This document shows positions 1,634 to 17,756 of a stretch of DNA of 17,756 nucleotides, in pieces. The translations under genes and the position numbers were made by a program. Origin of the DNA: Myxococcota bacterium (GTDB taxonomy: Bacteria > Myxococcota > JACRCW01); contig JBFMGU010000215.1 of the NCBI GenBank assembly GCA_040752415.1, forward strand, positions 1 to 17,756. Reading direction: 5' to 3'. The notes under the pieces are model-generated. The model was not told the DNA's origin. It did not search any database and saw only the letters and a program-made list of their open reading frames with translations. Numbering within the stretch: the stretch's first letter is position 1; the number at the start of each line of letters is the position of its first letter.

Positions 1634-4600
1634 TCAATTGACGCAGACGTTGCCGTTGGCATTGCCCACGTACGTCATGTCGGGGCCAATGGAGAACCCG
1701 GGTGACGTGTCCTGGTAGATGCCACATGACGACGAGGAGCGAATCGTGGACGCCTGGATCGCTCCGTCGCACCCGGAGACTGTCAGCGCGCCCAAGGTGT
1801 TGCTGCCCGCGTGGTCGATGACGGCGTTGCCAATCTGCGCCTGGGCGTCGACGCAGTTGGGGGCAAGGTAGACGCCACTCCAGTCACCAGGCTGGGGGCT
1901 CGCGCTGCTGGACGTGAAGCGGATGGGCTCCGTGGCGGTACCCAGCGCGAGCAGGCCACCGGGAGCACCTGCGCCCACGACGATCCCGTACCCGGCATCA
2001 AAGAGGATGGTCACCCCCGGGTTGATGGTGAGGATGGGGGCTGCGTTCCCCTGCACGTCGAGGCTGAGGGCGGCGCGGTACGGCGCGTCCAGGCGTTGCC
2101 ACGTGGCGGAACGTGAAACCAGTCCACTGCCCAGGACGCGCACCTCGTCGCGGGTGTTGCCGGTGAAGATGGATGACGGGTCCAGCTCGGCCACGGAATC
2201 CGCGGGCAGCGAGATGGGTCTCTGGTTTCCCGTCAGCGTGTTGTTGGTGAATGTAGGTCCGGTGCCGTCGGCGAGCGAAGCGTCCGAGTGGACGTACACG
2301 CCGTCGTCATTGTTGTTGGAGCATTCCGTCCCGGAGATGGTTGCCGTGGAGGCTAACAGGGAGATGCCGTTGGCGGAGCTGTATCGCGACGTGACGCCCT
2401 GCAGGGTGACATCCGCCAGGTAGACCATGATGTTGCCGTACCCATTGTTCCCGCCGTACTCCACGGTCAAACCGCGGAGTTGGCTGCCCTGGTCGTGGTC
2501 ACCAACGTAGAGCCCGCCCCAGTCGCCTGCGGTGGGAGTGGCGGAAGCCGACGAGAACAACACTCCCGTGGTTTCGCCGTTGACCATGAGCCTGCCGTCT
2601 CCGGCGTAATTGCCCACGTCGAGCGAGGTGTTGCTGGAGAAGTACAATTCGGCGCCGTCCTGGATGGTGATGGTTGGAGCGGCCGCGCCGCCGACGTAGA
2701 TGCTCGCGACGACGACGTAGGGCGCGTCCAGCGCTTGCCACGTTCCGCTCTCACCCGCCGTTCCGCCGGCAATGACAACGGACCCACCATTGCCCGCGAA
2801 AGACGAGCTGCTGTCCAATTGGATAACGGAATCCGCGCCCAGCCGGATGGCCGCACCGCCGTTTCCCGTCAGCACGTTGCCGACGAAGGATGGACCGGCG
2901 TTGCTGTCCAGCGCCGCGGTGCTGGAGAGGTACACACCTTCGTCCTGGTTGGTCTCGAACGCGGAGTTGGAAACGCGCACCACACGCCCGGAGACGGAGA
3001 GCCCCGCCCTCGACGAGTACCGGGACGTGACGTTGTCCAGGAGCAACCTGGGTGTGGACGGTCCGCCCACGACGTAGATGTTGCTGTACCCGTTGCTGCC
3101 GCCGTACTCCACGGTCAATCCCTGCAGCACGGAGCCCAGGTCGTCGGGGTACAGGATCAGTCCCTGCCAGTCGCCCACGTCGGGGACGGATGAGGCGCTG
3201 GTGAACAGCACGCCGGTGTTGGTGCCGTCCACCTGGAGCCGGCCCTGGCCCACGGTCAGCCCGGTTCCAGGATTGAAACGCACCTGCACGCCGTCTTCCA
3301 CGGTCAACGTGGGTTGCGCCGTGCTGCCCACGTAGATGGTTCCCTGCACAACGTACGGAGCTCCAAGGTTGTGCCAGGTGGCGTCGACGCCAATGACTCC
3401 GCTGGTGATGGCAACACCGTCCAGCGCATTGCCCGAGAATGTGCTCGTGGCATCCAGCGCGCCCACGTCCTGCGGGCTGATGACCATGGCGTGGCCACCA
3501 TTTCCCGCGACGGTACTCCCGCCAAACTGCGCCAGCACGGAGCCTCCCTCCAGGCGCAGGCCCGCCGCGGAATTGTCGGCGAAGGTGGACCCGACGACGG
3601 ACACGCTGGATGCGTAGGCGAACAGACCGTGGTTGGAGTTGTGTTGGACCGTGCAGGCATCCAGCGTGACGTCGGTGTAGGTCACGTAGATGCCGCCGTA
3701 GTTGTTGGCGCCAGCGTATTCCACCGTCAAACCCACCAGGCTCGAGCCTTCCGACCCGTCGAGGAGCTGGAGTCCGTTCCAATCACCGGGGCTGGGAATG
3801 GAGGCCGCGCTGGTGAAACGCACGCCGTCCGTGGTGCCCACCACCTCCAGGCGACCTCGGGTGGACGACGAGTAGCCCACGTTGATGCCCGTGGCGGGCG
3901 TGAAGAGGACCACCACCCCGTCTTCCACCCTCAACGTGGGAGCGACGGGGGAGTGAACGTCAATCGTGCCTGCGGGTGAGATGAGATAGGGGACACTGAG
4001 GTTGCGCCACGTGGAGTCCAGGTCGACGAGGCCGGGCGACAGCTCGATGATGTCCACGGTGTTGCCCGTGAATGACGACGAGGGATCCAGCTCACCGGCG
4101 TAGCGCACCGGCATCACCAGCGGCTTCGCGTTGCCGGTGAGGGTGTTGCCCGCGAAGGTGGCCACCGCCGTGGAGCCCAAGGCCAGACCGCCCGCCGTGT
4201 CGGTGCGGAAACCAATGCCCGCGTTGTCGCGGATGACCGTGTTGCTGACGGTGGGAAATCCGCTGGTCACGTGGATTCCGTCGGACACGCTGTACCGGAC
4301 CTCGCTGCGCGTGATGGTGGGGCTGGACTGGTAGATGTGGATGCCGCCGTAGGTGTTGTCGCCGCCACGCTCCACCACGAGACCGTTGAGGGCGCTGCCG
4401 CTGTCGTAGAATCCCATCGTCAAGCCGAGCCAGGAAGCACCGGTGGCGCGCATCACCACGCCGGAGACCGCACCATCCACCAGCAGCCGACCCGCGGCCG
4501 AAGACGCGACCTCCAGCCCGGCGGCGGGATCGAACTCGAGCTGCACGCCGTCGCCGAGCGTCAGCACCGGATTGGCGGGGTCCTGGACGTAGACCGTGCC

Positions 4601-5752
4601 GGTCACGTGATAGGGCACGTCCACCGCCGACCAGACCGCGGAGCTCGTCACGAATCCACCGCGCACCTCCACGCCGGAAGTCACGTTGCCCGAGAAGGTG
4701 GAGCTCGACGAGAGCCGCCCCACCAGCTCCGGACCAAGCACGATTCCCACGTTGTTACCGGTGAGCGAATTGTTCTCGAAGGCCACCAGGTCCGACGGAG
4801 AGTCCAGCGCCACGCCGGCGTTTCCGTTGTTGATGAAGGAGGAGTTGGTGATGGTGGCGGAGGTGAGGGTGCCGTGGAACCCGTCCGTGGCGCTGTACCG
4901 GGCGGTCACGCCGTCCAGGAGGATGCTCGCTCCGGTGGATGAGATGCCGGCGAGGGCGCTGCCTCCGTACTCCACGACGAGACCGCGCAGCGAGGAGCCG
5001 CCGCTCTTTGGCCCGAGTCGCAGGCCGCCCCAGTCACCCGGCTGCGGACTGGCGTTTTCCGACGTCATGATGACGCCCAGGTCGGTTCCCCGGACCAGGA
5101 GGCGCCCGGTGCCGGTGTGCCCCGCGTACAGCCCCGCGCCATTGGCGAAGACCACCGTGGCACCATCCGCCACGACGAGGTCGGGTTGCTCGGCGTCGTC
5201 CCCCACGTAGACGTCGCACGTCACGCGGTGCAGCACAGCCGCGGCCCAGGTCTCGGTGAAGATGATGTTGCCGCAGTGCTCGACGACACAATCCCCCGCG
5301 CAGCCTCCCGAGGAGGAGCTGGCGCTGCTGGATGACGTCGAGAATCCGCTGGAGGAGGCGCTGCTGGTGGACGTGGCACCGCTGGAGCTGACTCCGCTGC
5401 TGGACGTGGAGGTGGACGCCCCCGCGCTGCTGCTGGCGGTGGAGGTCGATGACGCCGCCGATGACGACGACACCGGGCCGGAGGAGCTGCTGGAGCTGGC
5501 GGAGGAGGAAGAGGACGAGGCCCCCGAAGACGACGACGACGAGCTCGACGTGCTGGTTTGGGTGCTGGATGAGACGGTGGCTCCGCTGCTCGAGGAGGAT
5601 GACGAAGAAGTGGACGACGACGAGGATGACGACGCCGCCGAGGAGCTGGCGGTGCTCGAAGTGTCGGGTTGGGATGGGCCGCTTGTTGAAGGAAAGCATG
5701 CCGCCAGGAACGCCAATGTGGGAACCAACGTCGCGCGACGAGAACTCCGCAT
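1634..5752 (-). CDS. Large surface lipoprotein: Ser-rich stalk plus six tandem right-handed parallel beta-helix modules
   Basis: Start reassigned to ATG 5752 (GGAGG just upstream; MRSSRRATLVPTLAFLAAC gives a basic N-region, hydrophobic stretch and lipobox). About 120 aa of poly-Ser/Thr follow, then repeated (P)GDWxGL..GS.L.GL.VEYGG and N.LTGN / S.F.GN beta-helix-type motifs. Confidence 0.85.
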   Translation of the reverse strand: MRSSRRATLVPTLAFLAACFPSTSGPSQPDTSSTASSSAASSSSSSSTSSSSSSSSGATVSSSTQTSTSSSSSSSSGASSSSSSASSSSSSGPVSSSSAASSTSTASSSAGASTSTSSSGVSSSGATSTSSASSSGFSTSSSSASSSSGGCAGDCVVEHCGNIIFTETWAAAVLHRVTCDVYVGDDAEQPDLVVADGATVVFANGAGLYAGHTGTGRLLVRGTDLGVIMTSENASPQPGDWGGLRLGPKSGGSSLRGLVVEYGGSALAGISSTGASILLDGVTARYSATDGFHGTLTSATITNSSFINNGNAGVALDSPSDLVAFENNSLTGNNVGIVLGPELVGRLSSSSTFSGNVTSGVEVRGGFVTSSAVWSAVDVPYHVTGTVYVQDPANPVLTLGDGVQLEFDPAAGLEVASSAAGRLLVDGAVSGVVMRATGASWLGLTMGFYDSGSALNGLVVERGGDNTYGGIHIYQSSPTITRSEVRYSVSDGIHVTSGFPTVSNTVIRDNAGIGFRTDTAGGLALGSTAVATFAGNTLTGNAKPLVMPVRYAGELDPSSSFTGNTVDIIELSPGLVDLDSTWRNLSVPYLISPAGTIDVHSPVAPTLRVEDGVVVLFTPATGINVGYSSSTRGRLEVVGTTDGVRFTSAASIPSPGDWNGLQLLDGSEGSSLVGLTVEYAGANNYGGIYVTYTDVTLDACTVQHNSNHGLFAYASSVSVVGSTFADNSAAGLRLEGGSVLAQFGGSTVAGNGGHAMVISPQDVGALDATSTFSGNALDGVAITSGVIGVDATWHNLGAPYVVQGTIYVGSTAQPTLTVEDGVQVRFNPGTGLTVGQGRLQVDGTNTGVLFTSASSVPDVGDWQGLILYPDDLGSVLQGLTVEYGGSNGYSNIYVVGGPSTPRLLLDNVTSRYSSRAGLSVSGRVVRVSNSAFETNQDEGVYLSSTAALDSNAGPSFVGNVLTGNGGAAIRLGADSVIQLDSSSSFAGNGGSVVIAGGTAGESGTWQALDAPYVVVASIYVGGAAAPTITIQDGAELYFSSNTSLDVGNYAGDGRLMVNGETTGVLFSSASATPTAGDWGGLYVGDHDQGSQLRGLTVEYGGNNGYGNIMVYLADVTLQGVTSRYSSANGISLLASTATISGTECSNNNDDGVYVHSDASLADGTGPTFTNNTLTGNQRPISLPADSVAELDPSSIFTGNTRDEVRVLGSGLVSRSATWQRLDAPYRAALSLDVQGNAAPILTINPGVTILFDAGYGIVVGAGAPGGLLALGTATEPIRFTSSSASPQPGDWSGVYLAPNCVDAQAQIGNAVIDHAGSNTLGALTVSGCDGAIQASTIRSSSSCGIYQDTSPGFSIGPDMTYVGNANGNVCVN
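5309..5662 (-). repeat. Low-complexity poly-Ser/Thr linker coding region
   Basis: Translates to TSSTASSSAASSSSSSSTSSSS...; mixed TCC/TCG/AGC codons. Boundaries approximate. Confidence 0.85.
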
Positions 5753-5770
5753 CAATCCTCCGCGTGGAGA

Positions 5771-5800
5771 ACGATGACGACGATGAGGGGAACCCGTCAA
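5771..5800 (-). promoter_or_regulatory. Putative sigma70-type promoter for the beta-helix lipoprotein
   Basis: Minus strand TTGACG (5800-5795), N18, CATCGT (5776-5771), ending 18 nt before ATG 5752. Confidence 0.4.
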
Positions 5801-5909
5801 GCGCGGTGCGCGCGGCAGGGCGCGGAAAGGACCTGGCGCAGCCGGGTTCGTGCGCCACCGGGCGTGCGTTCGTCGTCGCGTCGTGGCTGAACCCGCGCGC
5901 TCTTGGCGA

Positions 5910-5934
5910 GTCCGTCAGCGTCACGCTCACGGAC
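5910..5934. promoter_or_regulatory. Near-perfect dyad (operator or hairpin)
   Basis: GTCCGTCAGCGT-C-ACGCTCACGGAC; arms match at 11 of 12 positions. Lies between the end of the stressosome operon and the lipoprotein promoter; no U-tract. Confidence 0.4.
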
Positions 5935-5977
5935 CGGGCGGGAAGTCCCACGAAACGATTCCGCGATTGCTCTGGCT

Positions 5978-6391
5978 TCAGCGGCGGCGGCGCATCACCG
6001 CACGAACCTCGAGTCCCCCGCCCTCCCGCCGACGCGCCGAGGCCTCGTCCACCAGGCGCCGCACCGAAGGACCACCCGCGCCCAGGGATTGCCCGGGCTG
6101 CCAGGCTTCCGCGGGGTTGCGCGGCCGGTCTTCAAACAGGCGCTCCGGCGTGTCCAGGCCCGGCCCGCGGTCCAGCACCACAACGGTCACGCGGTCCCAT
6201 TCCACGTGCATCTCCATCTCACCGCTTCCGGCGTGACGGACCGCGTTGGTGGCCAGCTCCAGCGTTGCCAGCGCCAGCCGCTCCGACGCCGCCGCGGCCA
6301 TTCCCAGCTCCCGCGCCAGCTTGCGGGTCAGGGCGGCGGCGGCGGTGGCGTCGGAGCGCTCCGCCAGGGGACAGCGACAGGCCAGGGTCAC
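5978..6391 (-). CDS. Second RsbT/RsbW-like anti-sigma-type Ser/Thr kinase (GHKL ATPase fold)
   Basis: N-box ELATNAVRHA, G1 DRGPG, G2 SLGAG..VRRLVDE. GTG start overlaps the upstream stop (GTGA at 6388-6391). Confidence 0.82.
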   Translation of the reverse strand: MTLACRCPLAERSDATAAAALTRKLARELGMAAAASERLALATLELATNAVRHAGSGEMEMHVEWDRVTVVVLDRGPGLDTPERLFEDRPRNPAEAWQPGQSLGAGGPSVRRLVDEASARRREGGGLEVRAVMRRRR

Positions 6392-6810
6392 GCGGGCGCA
6401 AGCTCACGCACGGCGGCGCGCGCGCAGGTCACCGCTTCTTCCACGGAGTTGAAGCTCTTGAGTTGAAACCGGGAGCGCGTGGCCAGCTTGGCCGCGGTGA
6501 TGACCAGCTGCATGGCGGCGCGGGTCATCATGGTGGCGTGGACCATGTAGATGTGCACTTCCTGGCCGGCGGGCGTGGCGGTGTTGGTGCTGATGAGCCG
6601 GCGTGCTTCCGGCGTGAACTTGCCCATCCGGGACATGTCCGTGATGTAGACCACGGTCTTCTCCGTCGACATCAGGGGCTGGATGAAGTCCATCAGCTCC
6701 TGCATCTGGTGCTCGTCGACGTCACCCTCGTACCGGGTGAGCATGATTCCCCGGTCCAGGTACTCCAGGTGGTGCTTGCCAATGGTCTTCTGCGGGTTGA
6801 CGGACGTCAT
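6388..6810 (-). CDS. STAS/SEC14 (SpoIIAA-like) domain protein
   Basis: Start reassigned to ATG 6810 (ATGA overlap with the rsbR stop). Motifs RYEGDVD and YITDMSRMGKFTPEARR, and C-terminal FNSVEEA, are characteristic of myxobacterial STAS/SEC14 proteins. Confidence 0.75.
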   Translation of the reverse strand: MTSVNPQKTIGKHHLEYLDRGIMLTRYEGDVDEHQMQELMDFIQPLMSTEKTVVYITDMSRMGKFTPEARRLISTNTATPAGQEVHIYMVHATMMTRAAMQLVITAAKLATRSRFQLKSFNSVEEAVTCARAAVRELAPA

Positions 6811-7466
6811 GGGGTTGCTCCCGGGTTGGCGTTGGGCTTGTTGCGGCTGTTGGCGAGGAAGCGGAGACACTCGGTGAGGCCTTCCTTGAGGCTGCGCAGC
6901 ACCTTCACTCCGCCCAGGTCCACGTTGAGCTCGACGAGCGTGCGCGCAATGGACGGCCCAATTCCCGTCAGCACGCACAACGCACCCAGCAGCTGCGCGG
7001 ACTTGATCATGCGCACCAGGTGATCCGCGGTGGCGGTGTCCACCACGTCCACGCCGGTGAGATCCACGATGACGCAGCGCGCTTTCTGCTCCACCACCGC
7101 GGTGAGCAGCCGCTCCGTCATCTCCGCGGAGCGCTGGGTGTCCACCAGGCCCACCACCGGCAAGGTCAACACGTCATCCCAGATCTCGATGATGGGCGTG
7201 GACAGCTCGCTCAGTGCAATGCGCTGTCGGGTGATGACACCCTTCTGCTGGCTGACATCCTGCTTCGCCTGCGCGAACTCTTCCGTCAGGATGTTGAGCA
7301 CCGCCTCGATCTCGCCAAAGGCGTCGTCGTGTGTGAGCGGGATGGTGATCAGCGCCGGGTCATAGTTCTGCAGCGAGATGTGAGACAGAACCTGCATGAT
7401 GCGGTCCAGGCGAGACCTCTCGATGGTGATCGCCTCGGTGGACGCTTGGAGGGTGGTCGTCGTCAC
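6807..7466 (-). CDS. rsbR: Stressosome RsbR-like protein (N-terminal helical/HAMP-like region plus STAS)
   Basis: ELSTPIIEIWDDVLTLPVVGLVDTQRS and IVDLTGVDVVDTATA carry both conserved phospho-Thr motifs of B. subtilis RsbR (T171/T205 equivalents); LLGA..VLTGI.P.IA.TLV. GTG start 7466 overlaps the rsbS stop; GGAG SD. Confidence 0.9.
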   Translation of the reverse strand: MTTTTLQASTEAITIERSRLDRIMQVLSHISLQNYDPALITIPLTHDDAFGEIEAVLNILTEEFAQAKQDVSQQKGVITRQRIALSELSTPIIEIWDDVLTLPVVGLVDTQRSAEMTERLLTAVVEQKARCVIVDLTGVDVVDTATADHLVRMIKSAQLLGALCVLTGIGPSIARTLVELNVDLGGVKVLRSLKEGLTECLRFLANSRNKPNANPGATP

Positions 7467-7888
7467 GCGCTTTCTCCCAGCAGCAGGGCCAGTGGGTCCG
7501 GCTGCGCGTTGGAGGGGGTGTGTTGAGGAACAACGCCGAAGTGGGCCAGCGCTTCTTCCAGGCTGAGCGTGGTCTTGATGTCCGTGAAGGCCACGCCCAT
7601 GGACTGGAGCGTCAGCGCCATCTCCGCGCGGAGGCCGCACAGCACTGTGGGCGTTCCCATCAGCATGGCGGAACGGGCCAGCCGCGCCACCACGGCGCAC
7701 AGGTGACTGTCCAACAGCCACATCCCGGAGATGTCCAGGATGAGGCCGCGGGCTCCGTCGCGTCGGATGGCCTCCAGCACGGTGTGCTGCAGGATGTCCG
7801 CTGCGGAGTCAGACACATCACCCTGGATGGGAACCAGCAGGCAGTTCCACAAGCGGATGGTGGGCACGGGGGAATCAACGGCCTTCAT
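7463..7888 (-). CDS. rsbS: Stressosome RsbS-like STAS antagonist
   Basis: VPTIRLWNCLLVPIQGD, GLILDISGMWLLDS (conserved phospho-Ser, S59 equivalent), LMGTPTVLCGLRAEMALTLQSMG, LSLEEAL. ATG 7888 with GGAGG SD and ATGA overlap. Confidence 0.9.
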   Translation of the reverse strand: MKAVDSPVPTIRLWNCLLVPIQGDVSDSAADILQHTVLEAIRRDGARGLILDISGMWLLDSHLCAVVARLARSAMLMGTPTVLCGLRAEMALTLQSMGVAFTDIKTTLSLEEALAHFGVVPQHTPSNAQPDPLALLLGESA

Positions 7889-8457
7889 GGCGCACCTCCG
7901 GGTTCGGCAAGAAGCAGCGTGGCGTCGTCGTGGTGGTGCGAGAACTGGCGCAGCATCCTGCTGGCGGCCGTCGCAAGCTCCACGCCGGCCAGCTCCTCCA
8001 GCGTCAGGCGAGCGGAGACGCCGTCGCTGAAGAGGCAGAGGCGGAACGTGGTTGGCAACGCCGCGGCGAACACGCGTGGCGTCACATGCTGCGCGCCCAC
8101 CACGCCGGGCGTGGGAACAAACGGGAGCGCAAAGCCCGTGGCCCGCACGCTGACATTGCCCACGGAAGCCCCGCGCAGCGTTCCCTCCGACACCGTGCAC
8201 ACCGCCACCGCCGCCCCACGCGTGTTGCGCAGCGCGCGGTCCAGCCCACCCAGCACCTCCACGAGGGGAGTGGCGGGTTCCCACGTGTGCAGGTGGTCCA
8301 GCGCCGCGGAGGCTGCAAGGTGCGCGGCCTCTCCGTGCCCCAATCCATCCACCAACGCGAGCAGATGCCGGCCGGAGCGACTCAGCGCCACTGCCGCGTC
8401 GCCATTGAAGGTCTCTCCCGCCCGGGGCCGACTGGCGATTTCAGTGCGCAGTATCAA
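7885..8457 (-). CDS. rsbX: RsbX-like PP2C/SpoIIE-family phosphatase
   Basis: RP..GETFNGD, ALVDGLGHG, TRGAA, SVGNV, PGVVG, LFSDGV, DDATL (metal-binding Asp residues present). Likely TTG start at 8457 with GGAGG upstream, overlapping the rsbT end by 17 nt. Confidence 0.85.
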   Translation of the reverse strand: MILRTEIASRPRAGETFNGDAAVALSRSGRHLLALVDGLGHGEAAHLAASAALDHLHTWEPATPLVEVLGGLDRALRNTRGAAVAVCTVSEGTLRGASVGNVSVRATGFALPFVPTPGVVGAQHVTPRVFAAALPTTFRLCLFSDGVSARLTLEELAGVELATAASRMLRQFSHHHDDATLLLAEPGGAP

Positions 8458-9079
8458 AGTGCACCTCCGCCTCAATGCGCGTTCCCGTCGGGCCGGTCCG
8501 GATGTCAAAGCGGGATGCCAGTCGCTTGCAGCCCAGGATTCCCTGACCCAGTCCCGTGCGGCTGCGGTACTTGCCAGCGAGGATTTCCGGCAGGTTGGAG
8601 ATTCCCGGTCCCCGGTCCTCTGCAATCACCACGATGCACCGGGTTGCCTGTTCAGGTCGGAAGAGCAGGTGGCCACCCGGCGTGTACTTGACCACGTTCC
8701 TCGCCAATTCACTGGCCAGCGTGGCGAGCTTCTGGAGGCCGAAAGGCCCCACGCCCAGGGCTTCACAAATGTTCCGGGCCACGCTGCGACACTCCAGGAG
8801 GTCCTGCTCTCGTTGCAGCTCCACGCGGGCCTCAGGCAGGGCAGTGCCGTGCGTGGCCAGGGCCTGCAGGCGCGTCAGCAACTGGGTGCGCTCGGTCTCA
8901 TTGAGAAAGAGGCGCAAGGCGTTGCCCATGGTGTTGATGACCACGGGAATGTTGGCGGGGTTCAGCTCCTCGGCGCGCAGCGAGGCAAGGCGGATGGCAC
9001 GTTGGAGGACGCCCTCCGCGTTGATCGGTGACATGTACGCGCGGGACACCTGGAGCATCTCTTCGTAAATGCTTCGCAT
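8441..9079 (-). CDS. rsbT: RsbT-like switch kinase with ~80-aa N-terminal helical extension
   Basis: LATLASELARNVVKY, IAEDRGPGI, GKYRSRTGLGQGILGCKRLASRFDIRTGPTGTRI match RsbT. Start taken at ATG 9079 (MRSIYEE). Confidence 0.87.
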   Translation of the reverse strand: MRSIYEEMLQVSRAYMSPINAEGVLQRAIRLASLRAEELNPANIPVVINTMGNALRLFLNETERTQLLTRLQALATHGTALPEARVELQREQDLLECRSVARNICEALGVGPFGLQKLATLASELARNVVKYTPGGHLLFRPEQATRCIVVIAEDRGPGISNLPEILAGKYRSRTGLGQGILGCKRLASRFDIRTGPTGTRIEAEVHFDTAH

Positions 9080-9524
9080 GGAGCCCCCACCCGGCTGGCA
9101 CTCACCACCCGAGACGGGCATTGAACACCGTTCGTGGCGCGGGAATTTCCCAAGATCGCAAAATCCCTGCGCCGGGCCGCCGGCCGCGTGATTGCCTAAC
9201 CATGGCGAACCGGTCCTATGGGCTTGCGCGGACTGACCTGATGACCGCGCGAGGGTCAGTGCTGACGGGGCGCATTGTCCTCGTCGGCATCAGGACCGCC
9301 TCCGCGCGATCGGTGGCCCACCACGCCCACCTCTCGGTGGCGCCGTGGCTCCCGGTGGTGCTCGTGTGAAGCGCTGCTGGAGGTGGGCGTGGTCCGGCCG
9401 CGCAGGGGCTCCGTGAACGCGCTGCCCGTCGTTGCCGTGTGACTCATATCACGACGGTGCGAGCACGAGCGGTGCGCCTGGACCTAATCGTTGCTAAGTG
9501 ATCCCGCCGGGCAGTTCCGGTTCC

Positions 9525-10085
9525 TCACATCGTCGGCAGGAGCACAGCGTCGACGACATGGACCACCCCGTTGGACCCGGACACCGTGGCCAGGATGTTG
9601 GCGCCGTTCACCTTGACCTTGCCGTCGGGACCAACCGCCACGGTGACGCGGGTGCCGTCGGCCATGCCCAGCGTCTGGCCGTCGCGGAAGTCCTTGAGCT
9701 GCAAGGCCGGGACGGTGGCGTGGTGTTGCAGGATCTTCTTGAGCTCTCCCTTCTTCTCCGGTTTCAGCAGGCCCTCCACGGTTCCCGGCGGGAGCTTCTC
9801 GAAGGCGCCATTGGTGGGCGCGAAAACGGTGTAGATGCCGCCCGGACTGCCGAGCGTGTAGACCAGCTCGGAGGCTTTCACCGCGGCCACCAGGGTCGTG
9901 TGGTCCGGGGAGCTGACGGCAATGTCCAGCACGGTGTTGGCGCCCTGGGCGCGCGGTGGCGTCGCGGGTGGGGCCGCGGTGGGGGTGGGCTTGGCCGCCG
10001 GCGTGGGGAGCGTGGCCGAGGGCTGCGCCGCGCCGCTGCAACCAACGAGACCGGTCAGGACAATCACGCGAAAAGCTCGAAACAT
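9525..10085 (-). CDS. Fasciclin (FAS1) domain lipoprotein
   Basis: ATG 10085 with GAGGA SD; signal peptide and lipobox LVGC; Pro-rich linker; FAS1 motifs HTTLVAAVKA, YTVFAPTNGAF, ILQHH, SNGVVHVVDAVLLP. Confidence 0.92.
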   Translation of the reverse strand: MFRAFRVIVLTGLVGCSGAAQPSATLPTPAAKPTPTAAPPATPPRAQGANTVLDIAVSSPDHTTLVAAVKASELVYTLGSPGGIYTVFAPTNGAFEKLPPGTVEGLLKPEKKGELKKILQHHATVPALQLKDFRDGQTLGMADGTRVTVAVGPDGKVKVNGANILATVSGSNGVVHVVDAVLLPTM

Positions 10086-10141: not shown

Positions 10142-10274
10142 CTTTTTGACGACGAGGGGAGCCGTGCCGTGAGGTGTCAAAGCTGCGCCGTCGCCGCGCG
10201 GGGAATGCAAGCGCTTCGCGAAAGCGGGTACGGGAGGAGCAGGGCTGGCGCCGGGTCAGGCTAGGATGGGGGGT

Positions 10275-11846
10275 ATGGGTCCTGATGCCGCCGCGCCGGT
10301 GAAGCTGCTTGCCCCGCTGCCCAGCGGCGGCATGGCGGTGGTGTGGCGCGCGCGCCTGTCCGACGGCACGGCCGTGGCCTTCAAGCGCCTCCGCCCCGAG
10401 CTGCTCCGCGACCCCGACCTGCGCCAGATGTTCCAGGACGAGGCCCGCCTGTGTGAGCGGCTGGTGCATCCCCACATTGTCCGCCTGCTCAAGCACGGTG
10501 AGGACGGGGAGGGGCCGTTCCTGGCCTTCGAGCTCGTCGACGGTGCGGACCTGCGCGAGGTGCTCGCGGCGCGTGGGCGGCCTCTCACGTCGGAGGCGGT
10601 GCACGTGCTGGCCCGCGCGTTGTTGGGCGCGCTGGGGTACGCGCATGGACTTTCCGCCGCGGAAGGACGCTCGCTGGGCGTGGTGCACCGGGACGTCTCA
10701 CCGTCCAACGTGCTGCTCTCCCGCGCGGGCGAGGTGAAGCTGGCGGACTTTGGAGTGGCGGCCTCCGGCATCAAGACCCACCAGACGCGCTACGGCGAGC
10801 TCAAGGGCAAGTGCGCGTACATGTCGCCGGAGCAGACGCAGGGCGGCGTGCTCACCGCGTCCAGCGACCTCTTCTCCCTCGGCATCGTGTTGTGGGAGTG
10901 CGCCACGTGCCGCCCGCTCTTTGACCGCGCCACCGACGTCGACACGCTGCTGGCCGTGCGCGCCGCGGACGTGCCCGCCCTCGCCGCCGAGAGGCCCGAG
11001 CTGCCGGGACCGCTGACGGAGCTCATCCACCAACTCCTGCAGCGTGAGCCCGAAGCGCGCCCCGCTTCCGCGCTGGACGCGCTGCAGTCGCTGGATGCGC
11101 GCCTGGCTCCGCCGCAGACCGCGCAGCATGTCCGCGCGCTGGTGGACGAGCACCTCTCCCGCCAGTTGCCCGTCGAGGTTGCTCCCGCGCCCCGTCGACG
11201 ACGAACCCGCGTGGCGGAGGCCGCCGCCGTCGCTCCCGCGCCTTCCGTGGAGGCCGCTGCTCCGTCCAACACACCGCCTCCCGTCGTCGAGGCGGTTGCG
11301 GCGCCGGCGAAAACGTCGTGGTTGCCCGCGGTGGGGGGCGTGACGGCGTTGGGGGTGGCCGCCGGGTTGTACTTCGCGGGGCCCGCATCCCCGTCGGAAA
11401 CGCTCCCGCCCGCGGTGGTGACACCCGCGCCCGTGGTCGCGCCGCCCGTCGTGGCGCCACCACAGCCCGTCTCCGTGGCGACCACGGTGGAGCCCGCGCC
11501 CGTCGAGAAGAAGGAGGAGCCCGCGCCCACGCCTCGCCCGGTGCAACGCCTTCCCATCATTCCGCCGCGCACCGCCCGTCCCGCCGCAACACCCGCCAAT
11601 CCCGTCCCCCCCGCGGCGCAGGGACATGGGACGTTGGACCTGAACTCGGAACCGTGGGCGGAGGTTCTCGTCGACGATCAGCCCCTGGGCGCCAACACTC
11701 CCCTGCGCGGCGTCCGCGTGGCGGCGGGCCGGCGACGCATCACCTTCCGCAACCCGGTGCTGCAGCTCCAGCAGACGGTGACGGTGGACATTGCCAACGG
11801 GGAGCGGCGCACGGTGTCAGCGCGGCTGGTCCCCGAGGATCAGTAG
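10275..11846 (+). CDS. Hanks-type Ser/Thr protein kinase with a TM segment and C-terminal PEGA-like domain
   Basis: SGGMAVV, VAFKR, HPHIV, HRDVSPSN, KLADFG, KGKCAYMSPEQ, SDLFSLG; hydrophobic AVGGVTALGVAAGLYF; GTLDLNSEPWAEVLVD...TPL. Start is 10266 or 10275. Confidence 0.92.
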   Translation: MGPDAAAPVKLLAPLPSGGMAVVWRARLSDGTAVAFKRLRPELLRDPDLRQMFQDEARLCERLVHPHIVRLLKHGEDGEGPFLAFELVDGADLREVLAARGRPLTSEAVHVLARALLGALGYAHGLSAAEGRSLGVVHRDVSPSNVLLSRAGEVKLADFGVAASGIKTHQTRYGELKGKCAYMSPEQTQGGVLTASSDLFSLGIVLWECATCRPLFDRATDVDTLLAVRAADVPALAAERPELPGPLTELIHQLLQREPEARPASALDALQSLDARLAPPQTAQHVRALVDEHLSRQLPVEVAPAPRRRRTRVAEAAAVAPAPSVEAAAPSNTPPPVVEAVAAPAKTSWLPAVGGVTALGVAAGLYFAGPASPSETLPPAVVTPAPVVAPPVVAPPQPVSVATTVEPAPVEKKEEPAPTPRPVQRLPIIPPRTARPAATPANPVPPAAQGHGTLDLNSEPWAEVLVDDQPLGANTPLRGVRVAAGRRRITFRNPVLQLQQTVTVDIANGERRTVSARLVPEDQ

Positions 11847-12936: not shown

Positions 12937-14748
12937 TCACTCCTCGCGCACGTTGAACTCGAAGCGCGCGCGCTGCTCGCCGTTGCGCGCCATGCACGCC
13001 AGCTCCAGCGTCCCAATCGGCGTGACGTGGGAGCGGATGTGCACGGGCAGCAGCTCGCCGGGCGTGCCGCTGGCGGTGGCCTCGATGGGCGGCAGCTCGG
13101 TCAGCTCGGCAATGTCCTTCACTTCCGCGCCCACGGTGTCGGTGCGTCGCGTGGTCGACGAGAAGAAGCGGAACTGCGCGGGCTCGCCGGTGACCAGGCC
13201 CATCTCTCCGGGCAGGTCCGTCTGGCTTCCCTCTTCCATGCCAAAGGGCGCCACGCACATGGCCTTGATGGGCGGCGGCACACCCGGCACCGCCGGCGCG
13301 TTGAGCTCAATGCCCACGTAGTACGCGCGCGCCGTGCCGCCGCGGATGCGCACGCCACCGCGCGCCTTCATGTGCGCGTAATAGCTGGCGCCCTTGGCCA
13401 CGGCGTGATCCAGGTCCTGTCCGCTCAGCACGCGCACCGGCTCGCTGCCTTCCGCCTTGAGCCACGTGTTGAGCACCTCCACCACGCGACCCTGCAGCGC
13501 TTCCGCCTTGAAGACACCGCCGTTGAACAGCACGCAGGTGGGGTGCAGGAAGGTGGCGCCTTGCGGCGTCTTGGCATGTTGCGCCGCCGCCGCGCCCAGC
13601 TGCTTGGCCAGGAATTCCGCCAGGTGCTTGGTGACGGCGGGATCCTGCGCGTAGGGCAGGCCCATCGTCGCCAGACCGGTGCGACGCGCCTTCACCGGCC
13701 GCGCATCCTGTCCCGCGCGCGGGAAGAAGCCTTCCACCAGTACGCTCACCAGCGTCTCGCGCTCCAGCTCGGTACGCATGGTGCCGCCCATGAGCTTGCT
13801 GCCGCGGCTGGCCAGCGCAATGGGGAAGGTGGCCAGGTCCGCGCGCGAGAAGAGCTGCTCCTTGGCCTCCCGACACGCGAAGGTCAGCGCCTGGAACTGC
13901 GCCTGGTCCAGCGTCTTGCCGCCCGCTTCCAGCTTGGCCTTGACGTGGTGCGCCAGGGCCAGGTCCATGTTGTCGCCGCCGAGGAGGATGTGGTCGCCCA
14001 CGGCGATGCGGTGGATATGCAGGGTGCCGTTCTCCTCGCCCACGGCCATGAGCGAGAGGTCGGTGGTGCCGCCGCCCACGTCGACGACGAGCACCACGTC
14101 GCCGGCCTTCAGCTCCCGGCGCCAGCTCTCTCCGCGCGCCGCCAGCCACGCGTAGAGCGCCGCCTGCGGCTCCTCCAGCAGCGTCATGTTCTCCAGGCCC
14201 GCGGCCCTGGCGGCCTCCGCGGTGAGCTCGCGCGCGCCGGGGTCAAAGCTGGCGGGCACGGTGAGCACCACGTCCTGCTTGGCCAGCTTCTCGCCCTTGC
14301 CGTGTGAGGCGTCCCACGCTTCACGCAGGTGCTGCAGGTAGCGCGTGCTGGCTTCCACCGGGGAGACCTTCTGCACGCCCTCCGGCGCGCCCCACGGCAG
14401 GATGGCGCCGCGCTTGTCCATGCTGCTGACGACGGAAAGCCAGCTCTTGGCCGACGAGACCAGGCGGTCCGGCACGCGGCTGCCCTGGCGGAGCGCGAAG
14501 AGGCCGGTGGCGTAGTCGCGGTTCTTGTCCCAGGGCAGCGCGGTGGCGCCGGCCTGCAGCTCGTGCTCGCCGGGGAGGTAGCAGAAGCTGGGGAGCAGCG
14601 GGCGGTTCTCCACCTCACCGGGGTTCACCACCTGCGGAATGTCCATGATGGCCGGCGGGACGGGGTCCTCGGTCTTGAACGGTGCGCTCGCCAGCGCGCA
14701 GTTGGTGGTCCCCAGGTCAATACCCACGGCAAACTTGTTCTCGCTCAC
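12937..14748 (-). CDS. Atypical Hsp70-family protein (not canonical DnaK)
   Basis: GIDLGTTNC, TVPASF, LLEEPQAA, VVDVGGGTTD, LLGGDNMD, VLFNGGVFK. Short C-terminus lacks a DnaK-type lid. GTG start 14748 overlaps the upstream stop. Confidence 0.92.
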   Translation of the reverse strand: MSENKFAVGIDLGTTNCALASAPFKTEDPVPPAIMDIPQVVNPGEVENRPLLPSFCYLPGEHELQAGATALPWDKNRDYATGLFALRQGSRVPDRLVSSAKSWLSVVSSMDKRGAILPWGAPEGVQKVSPVEASTRYLQHLREAWDASHGKGEKLAKQDVVLTVPASFDPGARELTAEAARAAGLENMTLLEEPQAALYAWLAARGESWRRELKAGDVVLVVDVGGGTTDLSLMAVGEENGTLHIHRIAVGDHILLGGDNMDLALAHHVKAKLEAGGKTLDQAQFQALTFACREAKEQLFSRADLATFPIALASRGSKLMGGTMRTELERETLVSVLVEGFFPRAGQDARPVKARRTGLATMGLPYAQDPAVTKHLAEFLAKQLGAAAAQHAKTPQGATFLHPTCVLFNGGVFKAEALQGRVVEVLNTWLKAEGSEPVRVLSGQDLDHAVAKGASYYAHMKARGGVRIRGGTARAYYVGIELNAPAVPGVPPPIKAMCVAPFGMEEGSQTDLPGEMGLVTGEPAQFRFFSSTTRRTDTVGAEVKDIAELTELPPIEATASGTPGELLPVHIRSHVTPIGTLELACMARNGEQRARFEFNVREE

Positions 14749-15329
14749 AGCTCGACCTCCGCGGGCGCCAGCACGGTGTGGTCCACGTCCTTGGGCGGCG
14801 TGGGGAGTTGCACCTGGGTGGCCCGCCACCCCCGGTGCTTCAGCTGACCCTTGAAGGGCGGGTTGCCCACCACCTTGCCGGTGAGCCGGATGCGGACGGG
14901 GTCAAAGCCCGCTTCCACCGTGTACGGCGTGCCCTCTTCCTGGGTCAGCAACGGTTCCACCTTCAGATACTGCTGCAGCGCCTTGCGACAACCCTCGTGC
15001 ACCACCCGCGCGGCCGCGCCCACGTCCTGGTCGGAGAACGTCGTCACGTCCTCCTGCAGGAAGTCCAGGAAGCGGCCCTCCCGCTGCAGCAGGGTGAGCA
15101 CGTGCAGCGCCGGCCCGGTGTGGTCCACCGCGGGCGCGGGAGCGGGCTTGGCGGGCACCTCCGGCAGTTTCTCGACGGGCTTGGGCGCGGGGAGCTCCCC
15201 GGCCATGGCCTGCTTGACCTGCTGGGCCAGCGCGGCGTCGAGGATGATGCGGAAGAACGCCACCAGGGCAATCACCAGGCGCGCGAAGAACGACGGCTGC
15301 AAGACAACCTCCACCCCGGCCTTGGGCAT
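14745..15329 (-). CDS. DUF2760 family protein with N-terminal hydrophobic anchor
   Basis: ALHVLTLLQREGRFLDFLQED...DVGAAARVVHEGC...GFDP..IRLTG.V.G.PPF.G.L.HRGW...LAPAEVEL. Alternative TTG start at 15302 follows a GGAGG. Confidence 0.88.
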   Translation of the reverse strand: MPKAGVEVVLQPSFFARLVIALVAFFRIILDAALAQQVKQAMAGELPAPKPVEKLPEVPAKPAPAPAVDHTGPALHVLTLLQREGRFLDFLQEDVTTFSDQDVGAAARVVHEGCRKALQQYLKVEPLLTQEEGTPYTVEAGFDPVRIRLTGKVVGNPPFKGQLKHRGWRATQVQLPTPPKDVDHTVLAPAEVEL

Positions 15330-16202: not shown

Positions 16203-16386
16203 GCTCACCGGATACACTCTTGGCCGCTCGGGCCGGTGTGCTCCCGTCCACGGAGCCGCCGGCCCGAATTTTTTTCGGCGTCCGGCTTGACACCTTTGGT
16301 CGATTGGCCGTTCCATGGTGGTGCAGGGGGGGCATCCGTGACATGGCAGGGTTCTGAAGGGTGGATGGTGCGTCGTCGGAGTGAGC

Positions 16387-17756
16387 ATGGCTGACGGCGC
16401 GTTCGTCCCCTTCCGGCTGGGCCGCTACGACGTGCTCATCCCGCTGGGGAAGGGCGGCATGGCGGAAGTGTTCCTGGCCGAGCAGCGCGGCGTGGCCGGG
16501 TTTGCGCGACTGGTGACAATCAAGCGCATCCGCACCAACCTCTGCGACGACGAGATGTACATCAAGATGTTCGTGGATGAGGCCAACCTCATGGTCAACA
16601 TCCACCATCCCAACGTCGTGCAGGTGATGGAGCTGAGCGAGGAGGGCAAGGACCTCTACATGGTCCTGGAGTACGTGGACGGCTGCGACCTGGCCCACGC
16701 GCTCAAGAAACGCCGCGACCCATTCGAGCCGCTGCCGCTGCGCCTGGGCCTGTACGTGATGTGGAGCCTGTTGCGCGGGCTCACCCAGGCGCACGAGGCG
16801 CGCTCTCCGACGGGGGAGCCGCTCGGGCTCATCCACCGCGACGTCACGCCGGGCAACGTGCTCATCAACCGCGCGGGCATGGTGAAGCTGGCGGACTTTG
16901 GCGTGGCCAAGGCGGCGGGGCGACTCACCCAGACGGCGGCGGGGCAGATCAAGGGCAAGCTGGGCTACATGGCGCCGGAGACGCTGACCGTGGCCGACGT
17001 GGACCAGCGCAGCGACATCTTCAGCGCGGGCGCGCTGTTCTGGGAGGTCCTCGTCGGCAAGGCGCTGTTCCCGGGGCCCTCACCGGCGGCGGTGATGAAG
17101 GCCATCGTCGAAGAGCCCATTCCACCGCCTTCCACGGTGCGAGATGACGTTCCCGCCGACGTGGACCGCGTGGTGATGCACGCGCTGGAGAAGGACCCCG
17201 CCCGTCGGCCGCAGTCGGTGCGTGAGCTGGAGGCGGCGGTGTTTCCGCTCCTCGGCGGCGCGCAGCCCGACGCCTTGGCGCAGGAGCTCGGCGCGTGGCT
17301 GCAGGCCAACGTTCCGCTGCGTGCTCCGTCGGAGATTGCCGTGCTGCCGCGACCCGGTGGCGGCACGCCGGACTCCTTTGGTTTTGGCAAACCGGTCTCC
17401 GTTCCCGGTGCGCCGGCCTTTGGAAAACCCGTCTCCGTCCCCGGCGCGCCCGCGTTCGGGCGGCCCACTTCCGTGGTGGAGGCCCCGTCCTTTGGCACGC
17501 CCCGGTCCGTGGCGGGTGTTCCCCCGACGGGCGAGGGGCCCGAGGGTGGTCGCACCCTGCGATTGGGCGCGGTCCCGGCGCCGCCGCCGTCGTCGTCGGA
17601 AGGACACACGCCGCCGCCCTCCGCGGTGCGTCCCGCGCAGATGGACGCCACGCTCTTCGACCCGCGCGCGCCCTCGCTCTCCGTCGCCACGCCGCCCCCG
17701 CCCGCGGCCCCCGCCAAACCCGCCGCACCTCCCCCCGACGACGACTTCTTCTCGGT
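16387..17756 (+). CDS. Hanks-type Ser/Thr protein kinase (partial; runs off the window and is absent from the ORF track)
   Basis: Manual translation from ATG 16387: MADGAFVPFRLGRYDVLIPLGKGGMAEVFLA...VTIKRI...HPNVV...IHRDVTPGNVL...KLADFGVAK...KGKLGYMAPE...SDIFSAG, then a Pro-rich tail; no in-frame stop seen. Confidence 0.93.
   Translation, partial: MADGAFVPFRLGRYDVLIPLGKGGMAEVFLAEQRGVAGFARLVTIKRIRTNLCDDEMYIKMFVDEANLMVNIHHPNVVQVMELSEEGKDLYMVLEYVDGCDLAHALKKRRDPFEPLPLRLGLYVMWSLLRGLTQAHEARSPTGEPLGLIHRDVTPGNVLINRAGMVKLADFGVAKAAGRLTQTAAGQIKGKLGYMAPETLTVADVDQRSDIFSAGALFWEVLVGKALFPGPSPAAVMKAIVEEPIPPPSTVRDDVPADVDRVVMHALEKDPARRPQSVRELEAAVFPLLGGAQPDALAQELGAWLQANVPLRAPSEIAVLPRPGGGTPDSFGFGKPVSVPGAPAFGKPVSVPGAPAFGRPTSVVEAPSFGTPRSVAGVPPTGEGPEGGRTLRLGAVPAPPPSSSEGHTPPPSAVRPAQMDATLFDPRAPSLSVATPPPPAAPAKPAAPPPDDDFFS
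17383..17526 (+). repeat. 36-nt coding tandem repeat, 4 copies
   Basis: FGKPVSVPGAPA / FGKPVSVPGAPA / FGRPTSVVEAPS / FGTPRSVAGVPP. Confidence 0.8.

Follow-up and report, generated by a model that had tools for sequence, protein, structure and literature searches.

How does a stressosome-type gene cluster work when it carries neither a canonical RsbT kinase nor an output gene of its own? The question is raised by six genes on the minus strand (positions 5978-9079) of a 17,756-nucleotide (nt) stretch of DNA from a Myxococcota bacterium (contig JBFMGU010000215.1 of assembly GCA_040752415.1), which was analysed at its full length and is called the window here. From 5' to 3' on that strand we name them kinA, PP2C, RsbS, RsbR, P5 and kinB. 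In our reading, put forward with slightly less than even confidence, the operon would be a co-translated stressosome-type module of STAS, GHKL and PP2C proteins, an RsbT-less and split variant of a cluster found in other Myxococcota, R-S-T-[H-PP2C]-[K-histidine kinase], with the roles proposed below (R and S stand for RsbR and RsbS, T for the RsbT kinase, H for a GHKL domain fused to PP2C, and K for the GHKL domain with which a hybrid histidine kinase begins). A first-pass annotation, made from the sequence alone, had described the six genes as a rearranged stressosome operon of a distinct myxobacterial type, with two switch kinases and no classical output. That description is partly supported: the module, the conservation of the gene set and the lack of an output in cis stand, while the gene order, the naming of the kinases and the restriction to myxobacteria do not.

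Six overlapping genes with the make-up of a stressosome-type module

Both the list of open reading frames and direct reading of the sequence bear out six overlapping minus-strand genes in the order first described, with exact overlaps. kinA (8441-9079; 212 amino acids (aa), ATG start at 9079) shares 17 nt (8441-8457) with the PP2C gene (7885-8457; 190 aa, TTG start), which encodes a single-domain phosphatase of the RsbX type. The other four junctions are overlaps of 4 nt: ATGA (7885-7888) leads into RsbS (7463-7888; 141 aa, ATG start, a single STAS domain), GTGA (7463-7466) into RsbR (6807-7466; 219 aa, GTG start, a C-terminal STAS domain), ATGA (6807-6810) into P5 (6388-6810; 140 aa, ATG start, predicted STAS/SpoIIAA fold) and GTGA (6388-6391) into kinB (5978-6391; 137 aa, GTG start, a stand-alone GHKL domain). 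Overlaps as tight as these suggest that the six genes are co-translated. The TTG start of PP2C is credible, as the N-terminus that it gives lines up with the first residues of 27 orthologues.

None of the six window proteins reaches the cut-off of any NCBIfam model. Pfam STAS is matched by RsbS with 32.0 bits (cut-off 22.6) and by RsbR with 57.0 bits, and the best matches of both in the PDB are stressosome proteins: for RsbS, those of Bacillus subtilis (6jhk_A, 6e-19) and Listeria (6qcm_A, 1.8e-15), and for RsbR, the RsbR-type chains of Vibrio vulnificus (7o0i_B, 7.6e-29) and Listeria (7b0u_A, 1e-26), RsbS chains being weaker matches to it (4e-14). Alignments of orthologues confirm that the phospho-acceptors and catalytic motifs are intact, as had been claimed. 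The acceptor column of RsbS (Ser61) is serine in all 30 sequences; in RsbR the first threonine (VDTAT) is threonine in 32 of 33 sequences and serine in the other, and the second (ARTLV) is threonine in 32 of 33. Judged from these comparisons, RsbR and RsbS are homologues of the stressosome scaffold proteins with their phospho-acceptors kept. The N-terminal part of RsbR is short (about 85 aa) and helical, and it belongs to no family and contains no recognised sensor domain. PP2C matches Pfam SpoIIE with 27.2 bits (cut-off 25) and, over its full length, the structures 3zt9 (7e-14) and B. subtilis RsbX (3w40, 2.3e-4), with the metal-binding motifs GD, DxxGHG, S/TDG and DD kept in 28/28 sequences. 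We take 3zt9, together with 2vy9, to be structures of Moorella proteins.

The proposal of a stressosome-type module is thus borne out, since RsbR and RsbS match stressosome structures best and PP2C matches RsbX over its full length. An RsbR-type protein with two threonines, an RsbS-type protein with its serine and a single-domain RsbX-type PP2C are all present; a stand-alone RsbT orthologue of about 135 aa behind rsbS and the gene order R-S-T(-X) are absent.

Two GHKL proteins and the canonical Myxococcota clusters

kinA matches Pfam HATPase_c with 29.2 bits (cut-off 26.4). Its AlphaFold2 model (predicted local distance difference test, pLDDT, 91.3) has a four-helix N-domain (residues 1 to about 78) and a C-terminal kinase domain (about 79-211), which is predicted to be a serine/threonine kinase domain of the anti-sigma type: its nearest structures are SpoIIAB (1l0o, Z 17.5), UsfX, RsbW (Z 14.9) and SiaB, with the CA domains of histidine kinases far lower (Z<=8.9). 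The N, G1 and G2 boxes are invariant in 16/16 orthologues. For the N-domain, an Atlas search gave no named family and the best structural match (VIA-align) was a weak one to the helical bundle Af1502 (Z 7.7); RsbU_N was not detected in kinA and 15 orthologues even at E<=10. Homologues of kinA bear the JGI label 'serine/threonine-protein kinase RsbT'.

kinB, which resembles SpoIIAB and RsbW in size and architecture, matches Pfam HATPase_c_2 with 46.3 bits (cut-off 27.4), and the top PDB matches of its profile are SpoIIAB over the full length (1l0o, 9.7e-7) and RsbW (6m36, 8e-6). Against the NCBIfam RsbW models it scores 18.8-18.9 bits where the cut-offs are 145-155, so that its likeness to RsbW and SpoIIAB, as far as sequence can tell, is one of superfamily level only. 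The G1 box (DxGxG) is kept in the window and in 8 of 15 orthologues; it is degenerate in the other seven (among them those of L061, L062, L064, L067, L069 and L070), which keep the N and G2 boxes, a loss that points to kinB drifting into the role of a pseudokinase in some lineages.

Matches to the kinase domain of kinA led to 13 further Myxococcota loci. Eleven of these (L074 and L076-L085) have the order RsbR(RsbRD_N)-RsbS-RsbT-[H-PP2C]-[K-HisKA-HATPase-REC-REC], which we call canonical here, and the remaining two R-S-T-PP2C-T2. The coordinates show a single open frame running through H and PP2C in 11/11 canonical loci; the domain architecture was checked with Pfam for L074 (HATPase_c_2-SpoIIE and HATPase_c_2-HisKA-HATPase_c-REC-REC). 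We found no paper that names this canonical cluster. The profiles of the window RsbR, RsbS and PP2C match their canonical counterparts at E 1e-27 to 1e-51, and that of PP2C finds the PP2C of 13/13 further loci, including the phosphatase halves of the GHKL-PP2C fusions, at E 7e-27 to 7e-38.

The relationships of the GHKL domains were examined in a quick maximum-likelihood tree of 92 rows and a careful one of 72 rows, from which 20 near-duplicates had been removed (136 columns, unrooted, Bacillus RsbT not included). kinA and K cluster together (support 100/99), kinB sequences form a clade (100/96), as do H sequences (100/99), and the main split separates H and kinB from T, K and kinA (99/90); the canonical T sequences fall in groups separate from both kinA/K and kinB/H. 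Pairwise identities of kinA are 43% with the K domain of L074, 34-35% with the two RsbT-type kinases compared (RsbT of L074 and an orphan kinase of the window's own genome) and 30% with kinB. As kinA groups with K and kinB lies on the H side, the operon has no strict RsbT orthologue. The earlier description of two switch kinases with RsbT identity was right in counting two kinase-like GHKL genes and too simple in naming them: neither is RsbT in the strict sense, kinA being on the RsbT side of the tree.

P5, a small protein with a predicted STAS fold

The window P5 has no Pfam match at E<=0.1. Its AlphaFold2 model (pLDDT 92.7, predicted template-modelling score, pTM, 0.86) shows four strands and four helices in what is predicted to be a STAS/SpoIIAA fold. 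The top Foldseek match is SpoIIAA (1h4z, E 8.4e-4, TM by target 0.70), with other anti-sigma antagonists and DUF3478 SpoIIAA-like structures next (probability 0.95-1.00 and TM by target 0.5-0.7 for these top matches); SiaC is also among the matches. The family is sparse: a first, non-exhaustive homologue search returned the window P5 alone, and an exhaustive one, which covered 1.84 billion representatives, found 39 relatives at E<=1e-3. PF11964 SpoIIAA-like is matched by 11 of 37 aligned relatives (best 3.6e-5) and DUF7793 by eight. One apparent relative, P0032 (2189 aa), is an EcKL-repeat protein and probably a spurious match.

In the model helix 2 of P5 begins at residue 67, right behind Thr66, which places this threonine at the N-cap. 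In SpoIIAA the phosphoserine presumably holds the same N-cap position on the corresponding helix, and Thr66 may be its counterpart and a putative phosphorylation site. In cluster-linked copies of P5 this column is serine or threonine in 20/22 Myxococcota sequences (the others have one proline and one alanine) and aspartate in 4/4 from Acidobacteriota; across the wider family the position is less conserved. Where one lineage has serine or threonine and the other an invariant acidic residue, a column shows the pattern expected of a regulatory phospho-site. With a predicted STAS fold and a serine or threonine at this place, P5 could itself be an RsbV-like switch, which makes the earlier statement that the operon contains no RsbV arguable.

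P5 goes with this type of cluster and not with canonical ones: its profile has no match at E<=1 in 14 canonical or other loci. Large Myxococcaceae genomes also carry P5-family genes in tandem arrays of two to three copies, with up to 10 copies per genome (for example at G344:C1:1888914-1890224, G308:C1:11793249-11794560 and G182:C1:8170669-8171500), and around most of the copies sampled, all five other cluster genes are absent within 1.5 kb.

Conservation of the gene set and variability of its order

A second six-gene cluster of the same order is found in the same genome, on contig C334 (locus L005, 3046-8304). The two clusters are 55% (kinA), 48% (PP2C), 56% (RsbS), 76% (RsbR), 41% (P5) and 50% (kinB) identical, and P5 and kinB adjoin in both, with the 4-nt overlap in the window. 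About 550 nt upstream of the C334 cluster, on the same strand, lies a gene for an NtrC-type sigma-54 activator (REC-AAA+-HTH_8), and a multihaem cytochrome gene is found further downstream of it.

Searches for related loci and profile searches of genomes gave 35 loci for comparison, 31 of which were kept; all of these have the core of kinA, RsbS and RsbR. The four that were dropped are two duplicates (L060, identical with L048, and L055, identical with L049) and two lone RsbR paralogues (L058 and L059). Among the 31 loci, which come from Myxococcota and two metagenome-assembled genomes (MAGs) of Acidobacteriota, 29 have PP2C and 28 a kinB-type gene; P5-type genes, one or two to a locus, are present in 21. 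In five loci (L009, L010, L061, L063 and L071) a small kinase that tblastn had assigned to kinA is included in the kinB-type count; those that entered the tree are found on its kinB/H side. The last two genes of the operon are therefore kept near the core in related genomes, as had been expected.

The order of the genes is far more variable than the set. The exact order of the window occurs in 2/31 loci only, the window and its paralogue, and the order R-S-T in none of the 31. In Myxococcaceae (Pyxidicoccus, some Myxococcus, Citreicoccus) the genes run kinB-kinA-PP2C-RsbS-RsbR-P5(-P5), in Sandaracinus P5-kinA-PP2C-RsbS-RsbR-kinB and in Nannocystales-type MAGs kinB-kinA-PP2C-RsbS-RsbR; the genome of the nearest relative (G001) has kinB(divergent)-kinA-PP2C-RsbS-P5-RsbR, and the two Acidobacteriota MAGs have RsbS-kinA-PP2C-P5-RsbR-kinB'-RsbR-P5. 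What stands of the proposed distinct myxobacterial type is the conserved set of six proteins; its order is shared by 2/31 loci and the set also occurs in the two Acidobacteriota loci. On a wider scale, the kinA profile has matches at E<=1e-25 in 124/401 sampled Myxococcota genomes (one of which, G195, is flagged unpublished), and at least 62/401 have a full-length kinA-type gene, with a match that includes the N-domain.

Behind RsbR, Nannocystales-type loci have a highly conserved open reading frame of about 150 aa and no known family (L062 4699-5157, with equivalents in L063, L066, L068 and L069); taken as a candidate P5 it reached an hhalign probability of only 30% and was not counted. The lone RsbR paralogues, at L058 4007-4705 (Pyxidicoccus sp. 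3LFB2) and L059 3986-4687 (P. caerfyrddinensis), have no other cluster gene within 4 kb and are about 61-62% identical to the RsbR of a Myxococcaceae cluster (L043) and 45-46% identical to that of the window. They recall the dispersed RsbR paralogues of Bacillus.

A proposed mechanism and its alternatives

Compared with R-S-T-[H-PP2C]-[K-histidine kinase], the operon would lack T, have H as a separate gene (kinB), have K without the histidine-kinase output and with a new N-terminal domain (kinA), and have P5 in addition. We propose that RsbR and RsbS would assemble the scaffold, that kinA would be the working kinase on RsbS-Ser61 and the RsbR threonines, possibly also on P5-Thr66, and that PP2C would reset the phosphorylated sites. 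As the detached counterpart of the GHKL domain of the phosphatase, kinB would most likely be its STAS-docking or regulatory partner and not a second switch kinase. Either P5, as a phosphorylatable SpoIIAA-like protein, or the N-domain of kinA could then take the signal to a target encoded elsewhere. It is doubtful, if conceivable, that the cluster stands for a whole RsbT-less class of stressosomes in which the jobs of RsbT have been divided among a K-type kinase with an N-terminal effector domain, a split-off GHKL protein and a phosphorylatable P5 that would leave the complex as a diffusible output to a target beyond the operon.

Several observations weigh against this scheme. The equivalence of Thr66 and the SpoIIAA phosphoserine is drawn from the helix boundaries of the model and not from a superposition. 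The window kinB, with its N, G1 and G2 boxes intact by sequence, could be an active kinase, and in an unrooted tree of 136 columns with long kinB branches the link between kinB and H could partly be due to attraction. There is no detectable P5 in 10/31 loci, so that P5 cannot be the obligatory output everywhere, and two loci (L012 and L047) have no PP2C nearby. Finally, an all-against-all comparison of the flanking open reading frames of the 35 loci found no common family beyond the six and suggested no target.

The main rival, which we consider unlikely, is a compact two-tier cascade like that of sigma-B, in which RsbR, RsbS and kinA would form the upper tier and P5 and kinB an RsbV/RsbW-like pair that acts on a sigma factor or regulator elsewhere, with the one PP2C serving both. 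SpoIIAB (9.7e-7) and RsbW (8e-6) are indeed the nearest solved relatives of the kinB profile, P5 combines a SpoIIAA fold with serine or threonine at the inferred phospho-site, and the two genes adjoin in the window and its paralogue. Against this, P5 and kinB are apart in most loci, where P5 is usually beside RsbR and kinB beside kinA, Nannocystales-type loci have a kinB-type gene and no detectable P5, kinB is found on the phosphatase-fused H side of the tree and falls far short of NCBIfam RsbW (18.9 bits against a cut-off of 145), and a sigma-factor gene recurs near none of the loci.

Another alternative, to which we give little credence, is that the proteins work in solution as small partner-switching complexes, without an icosahedral core of megadalton size, and perhaps as two separate modules, kinA-PP2C-RsbS-RsbR and P5-kinB, that have come to share one operon here. 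The short N-terminal region of RsbR (about 85 aa), with no recognised sensor domain, and the positions of kinB and P5, which vary between genomes, would fit such complexes, but the STAS domains are nearest to those of bona fide stressosome RsbR and RsbS proteins and not to RsbV or SpoIIAA, and the core is accompanied by kinB in 28/31 loci and by P5 in 21/31. The combination of RsbR-type, RsbS-type and RsbX-type PP2C proteins is, moreover, the defining composition of minimal stressosomes (PMC9237108).

Output candidates and genomic neighbours

The claim that the operon encodes no RsbU, sigma factor or cyclase holds, and it extends to the flanks: Pfam finds no sigma factor, RsbU_N protein or cyclase in either the operon or the rest of the window, and no sigma-factor gene was found to recur near any of the related loci. 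The flanks contain genes for a fasciclin protein, two Hanks-type kinases, an Hsp70-like protein, a Ser-rich beta-helix protein of 1388 aa and a PAS histidine kinase. Upstream of the operon are the two Hanks-type Ser/Thr protein kinases (10266-11846 and 16381-17754, plus strand) and the Hsp70/MreB-like ATPase (12937-14829, minus strand), and there is no evidence linking any of them to it. The gene for the 1388-aa protein (1634-5800, minus strand) shares the strand of the operon and starts 178 nt downstream of its last gene, kinB; the 1388-aa product has a long, Ser/Thr-rich N-terminal region of low complexity and repeated right-handed beta-helix units (Beta_helix, NosD).

The promoter is presumed to lie in the intergenic region upstream of kinA (9080-9524, minus strand), where no signal was recognised. 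A scan of 5600-9600 found no sigma-70-like promoter and no intrinsic terminator, and for the sigma-54 consensus neither the window nor the paralogue locus shows enrichment, with no coding-strand match upstream of kinA.

Three kinds of neighbours considered as conserved partners, a terpene synthase, a thiamine pyrophosphate (TPP) enzyme and a leucine-rich repeat (LRR) protein, turned out to be lineage-specific. A terpene synthase gene (Terpene_syn_C_2), a lineage-specific neighbour or perhaps a regulated target, lies directly downstream of kinB at L047 9144-10166, L064 3426-4484 and L072 5092-6150 and downstream of RsbR instead at L065 4679-7054 (Sandaracinus-type and f18 loci).

Elsewhere in the genome, contig C335 (G000:C335, L073) carries the orphan RsbT-like kinase mentioned above (135 aa, 4113-4520), with no RsbR or RsbS near it. 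The next gene, which makes up with it a pair spanning 4113-6462, encodes a hybrid histidine kinase of the architecture RsbU_N-PAS-HisKA-HATPase-REC, whose RsbU_N domain (29.4 bits, cut-off 25.5) is the sole match to this family in the genome. For an open reading frame upstream of the orphan kinase (L073 3673-4116) neither a family nor a structure match was found; its sequence is rich in Arg and Pro and looks non-coding. That this kinase should dock on the RsbR/RsbS scaffolds of both clusters, with the missing RsbT and the output thus supplied in trans by the pair, is very unlikely: the two genes are adjacent, away from any RsbR or RsbS, and the same pairing occurs in G124, but RsbU_N was not found in four of five other cluster-bearing genomes (G001, G182, G048 and G117; completeness 92-100%), so that the cluster generally does without one. 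A complex prediction for kinA and kinB with P5 as partner gave a score of 0.00 without controls, and carries no weight for or against binding.

Relation to known systems

Like the rsbRSTX modules of V. vulnificus (VvRsbRSTX) and Moorella thermoacetica (MtR/MtS/MtT/MtX), whose proteins are the nearest solved relatives, the operon has RsbR and RsbS with phospho-acceptors, a GHKL kinase of the RsbT side and an RsbX-type PP2C of one domain, and it encodes no sigma factor in cis. It differs from them in its order (kinase-PP2C-S-R instead of R-S-T-X), in a kinA that has a helical N-terminal domain of about 78 aa and belongs to the K subgroup rather than to canonical RsbT, in an RsbR without a globin or RsbRD_N sensor domain, in the addition of P5 and kinB, and in having no two-component or cyclic di-GMP (c-di-GMP) module downstream. 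With the canonical Myxococcota clusters it shares homologous RsbR, RsbS and PP2C proteins, a kinA that is sister to K and a kinB on the H side; unlike them it has no RsbT, separate H and PP2C genes, a kinA with a new N-terminal domain in place of the histidine-kinase fusion, and an additional SpoIIAA-like P5.

The sigma-B cascade of B. subtilis (RsbR, S, T, U, V, W, SigB and X) resembles the operon in its three STAS-fold proteins, two GHKL kinases, PP2C chemistry and partner-switching logic, whereas the operon has one phosphatase, no RsbU_N, no sigma factor and a different order, and P5, unlike RsbV, is placed in the SpoIIAA-like (PF11964/DUF7793) branch. In the SiaA/SiaB/SiaC/SiaD system of Pseudomonas aeruginosa, a STAS-like switch is phosphorylated on threonine and the output is not a sigma factor. 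The window has in common with it a small STAS-like protein, a GHKL kinase and a PP2C phosphatase, and SiaC and SiaB turn up in the fold comparisons of P5 and kinA; it differs in having an RsbR/RsbS scaffold and no diguanylate cyclase, and the similarity of P5 to SiaC is weak (Foldseek E 0.02-0.06).

To our knowledge, stressosome targets and the way in which the signal leaves the complex are largely not established outside Firmicutes and Vibrio. Modules of the four genes rsbRSTX, followed by a variety of other modules, are well documented (PMC9237108), and a survey of myxobacterial phosphatases from 2010 reports putative RsbRST clusters in Sorangium, with no mention of the present arrangement in the part of it that was consulted (PMC2887360). 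Our literature search found nothing published on kinase-PP2C-S-R clusters of myxobacteria, on the P5 family in this context or on the distinction between T, H and K, although the RsbRST survey of 2005 (Pane-Farre et al.) was outside this search and could contain a prior description.

In stressosome-type clusters, automatic labels such as 'RsbT' conceal no fewer than three separate GHKL lineages (T, H and K), all of which occur within one canonical operon in 11 Myxococcota genomes. The cluster studied here keeps the scaffold and the reset phosphatase without a canonical RsbT or an output in cis, and the addition of P5 correlates with that loss. It may thus be a natural experiment on which functions of RsbT, as kinase, docking partner and signal carrier, are separable, and one that would be directly testable, since the cluster occurs in cultured and genetically tractable Myxococcaceae (Pyxidicoccus, some Myxococcus and Citreicoccus).

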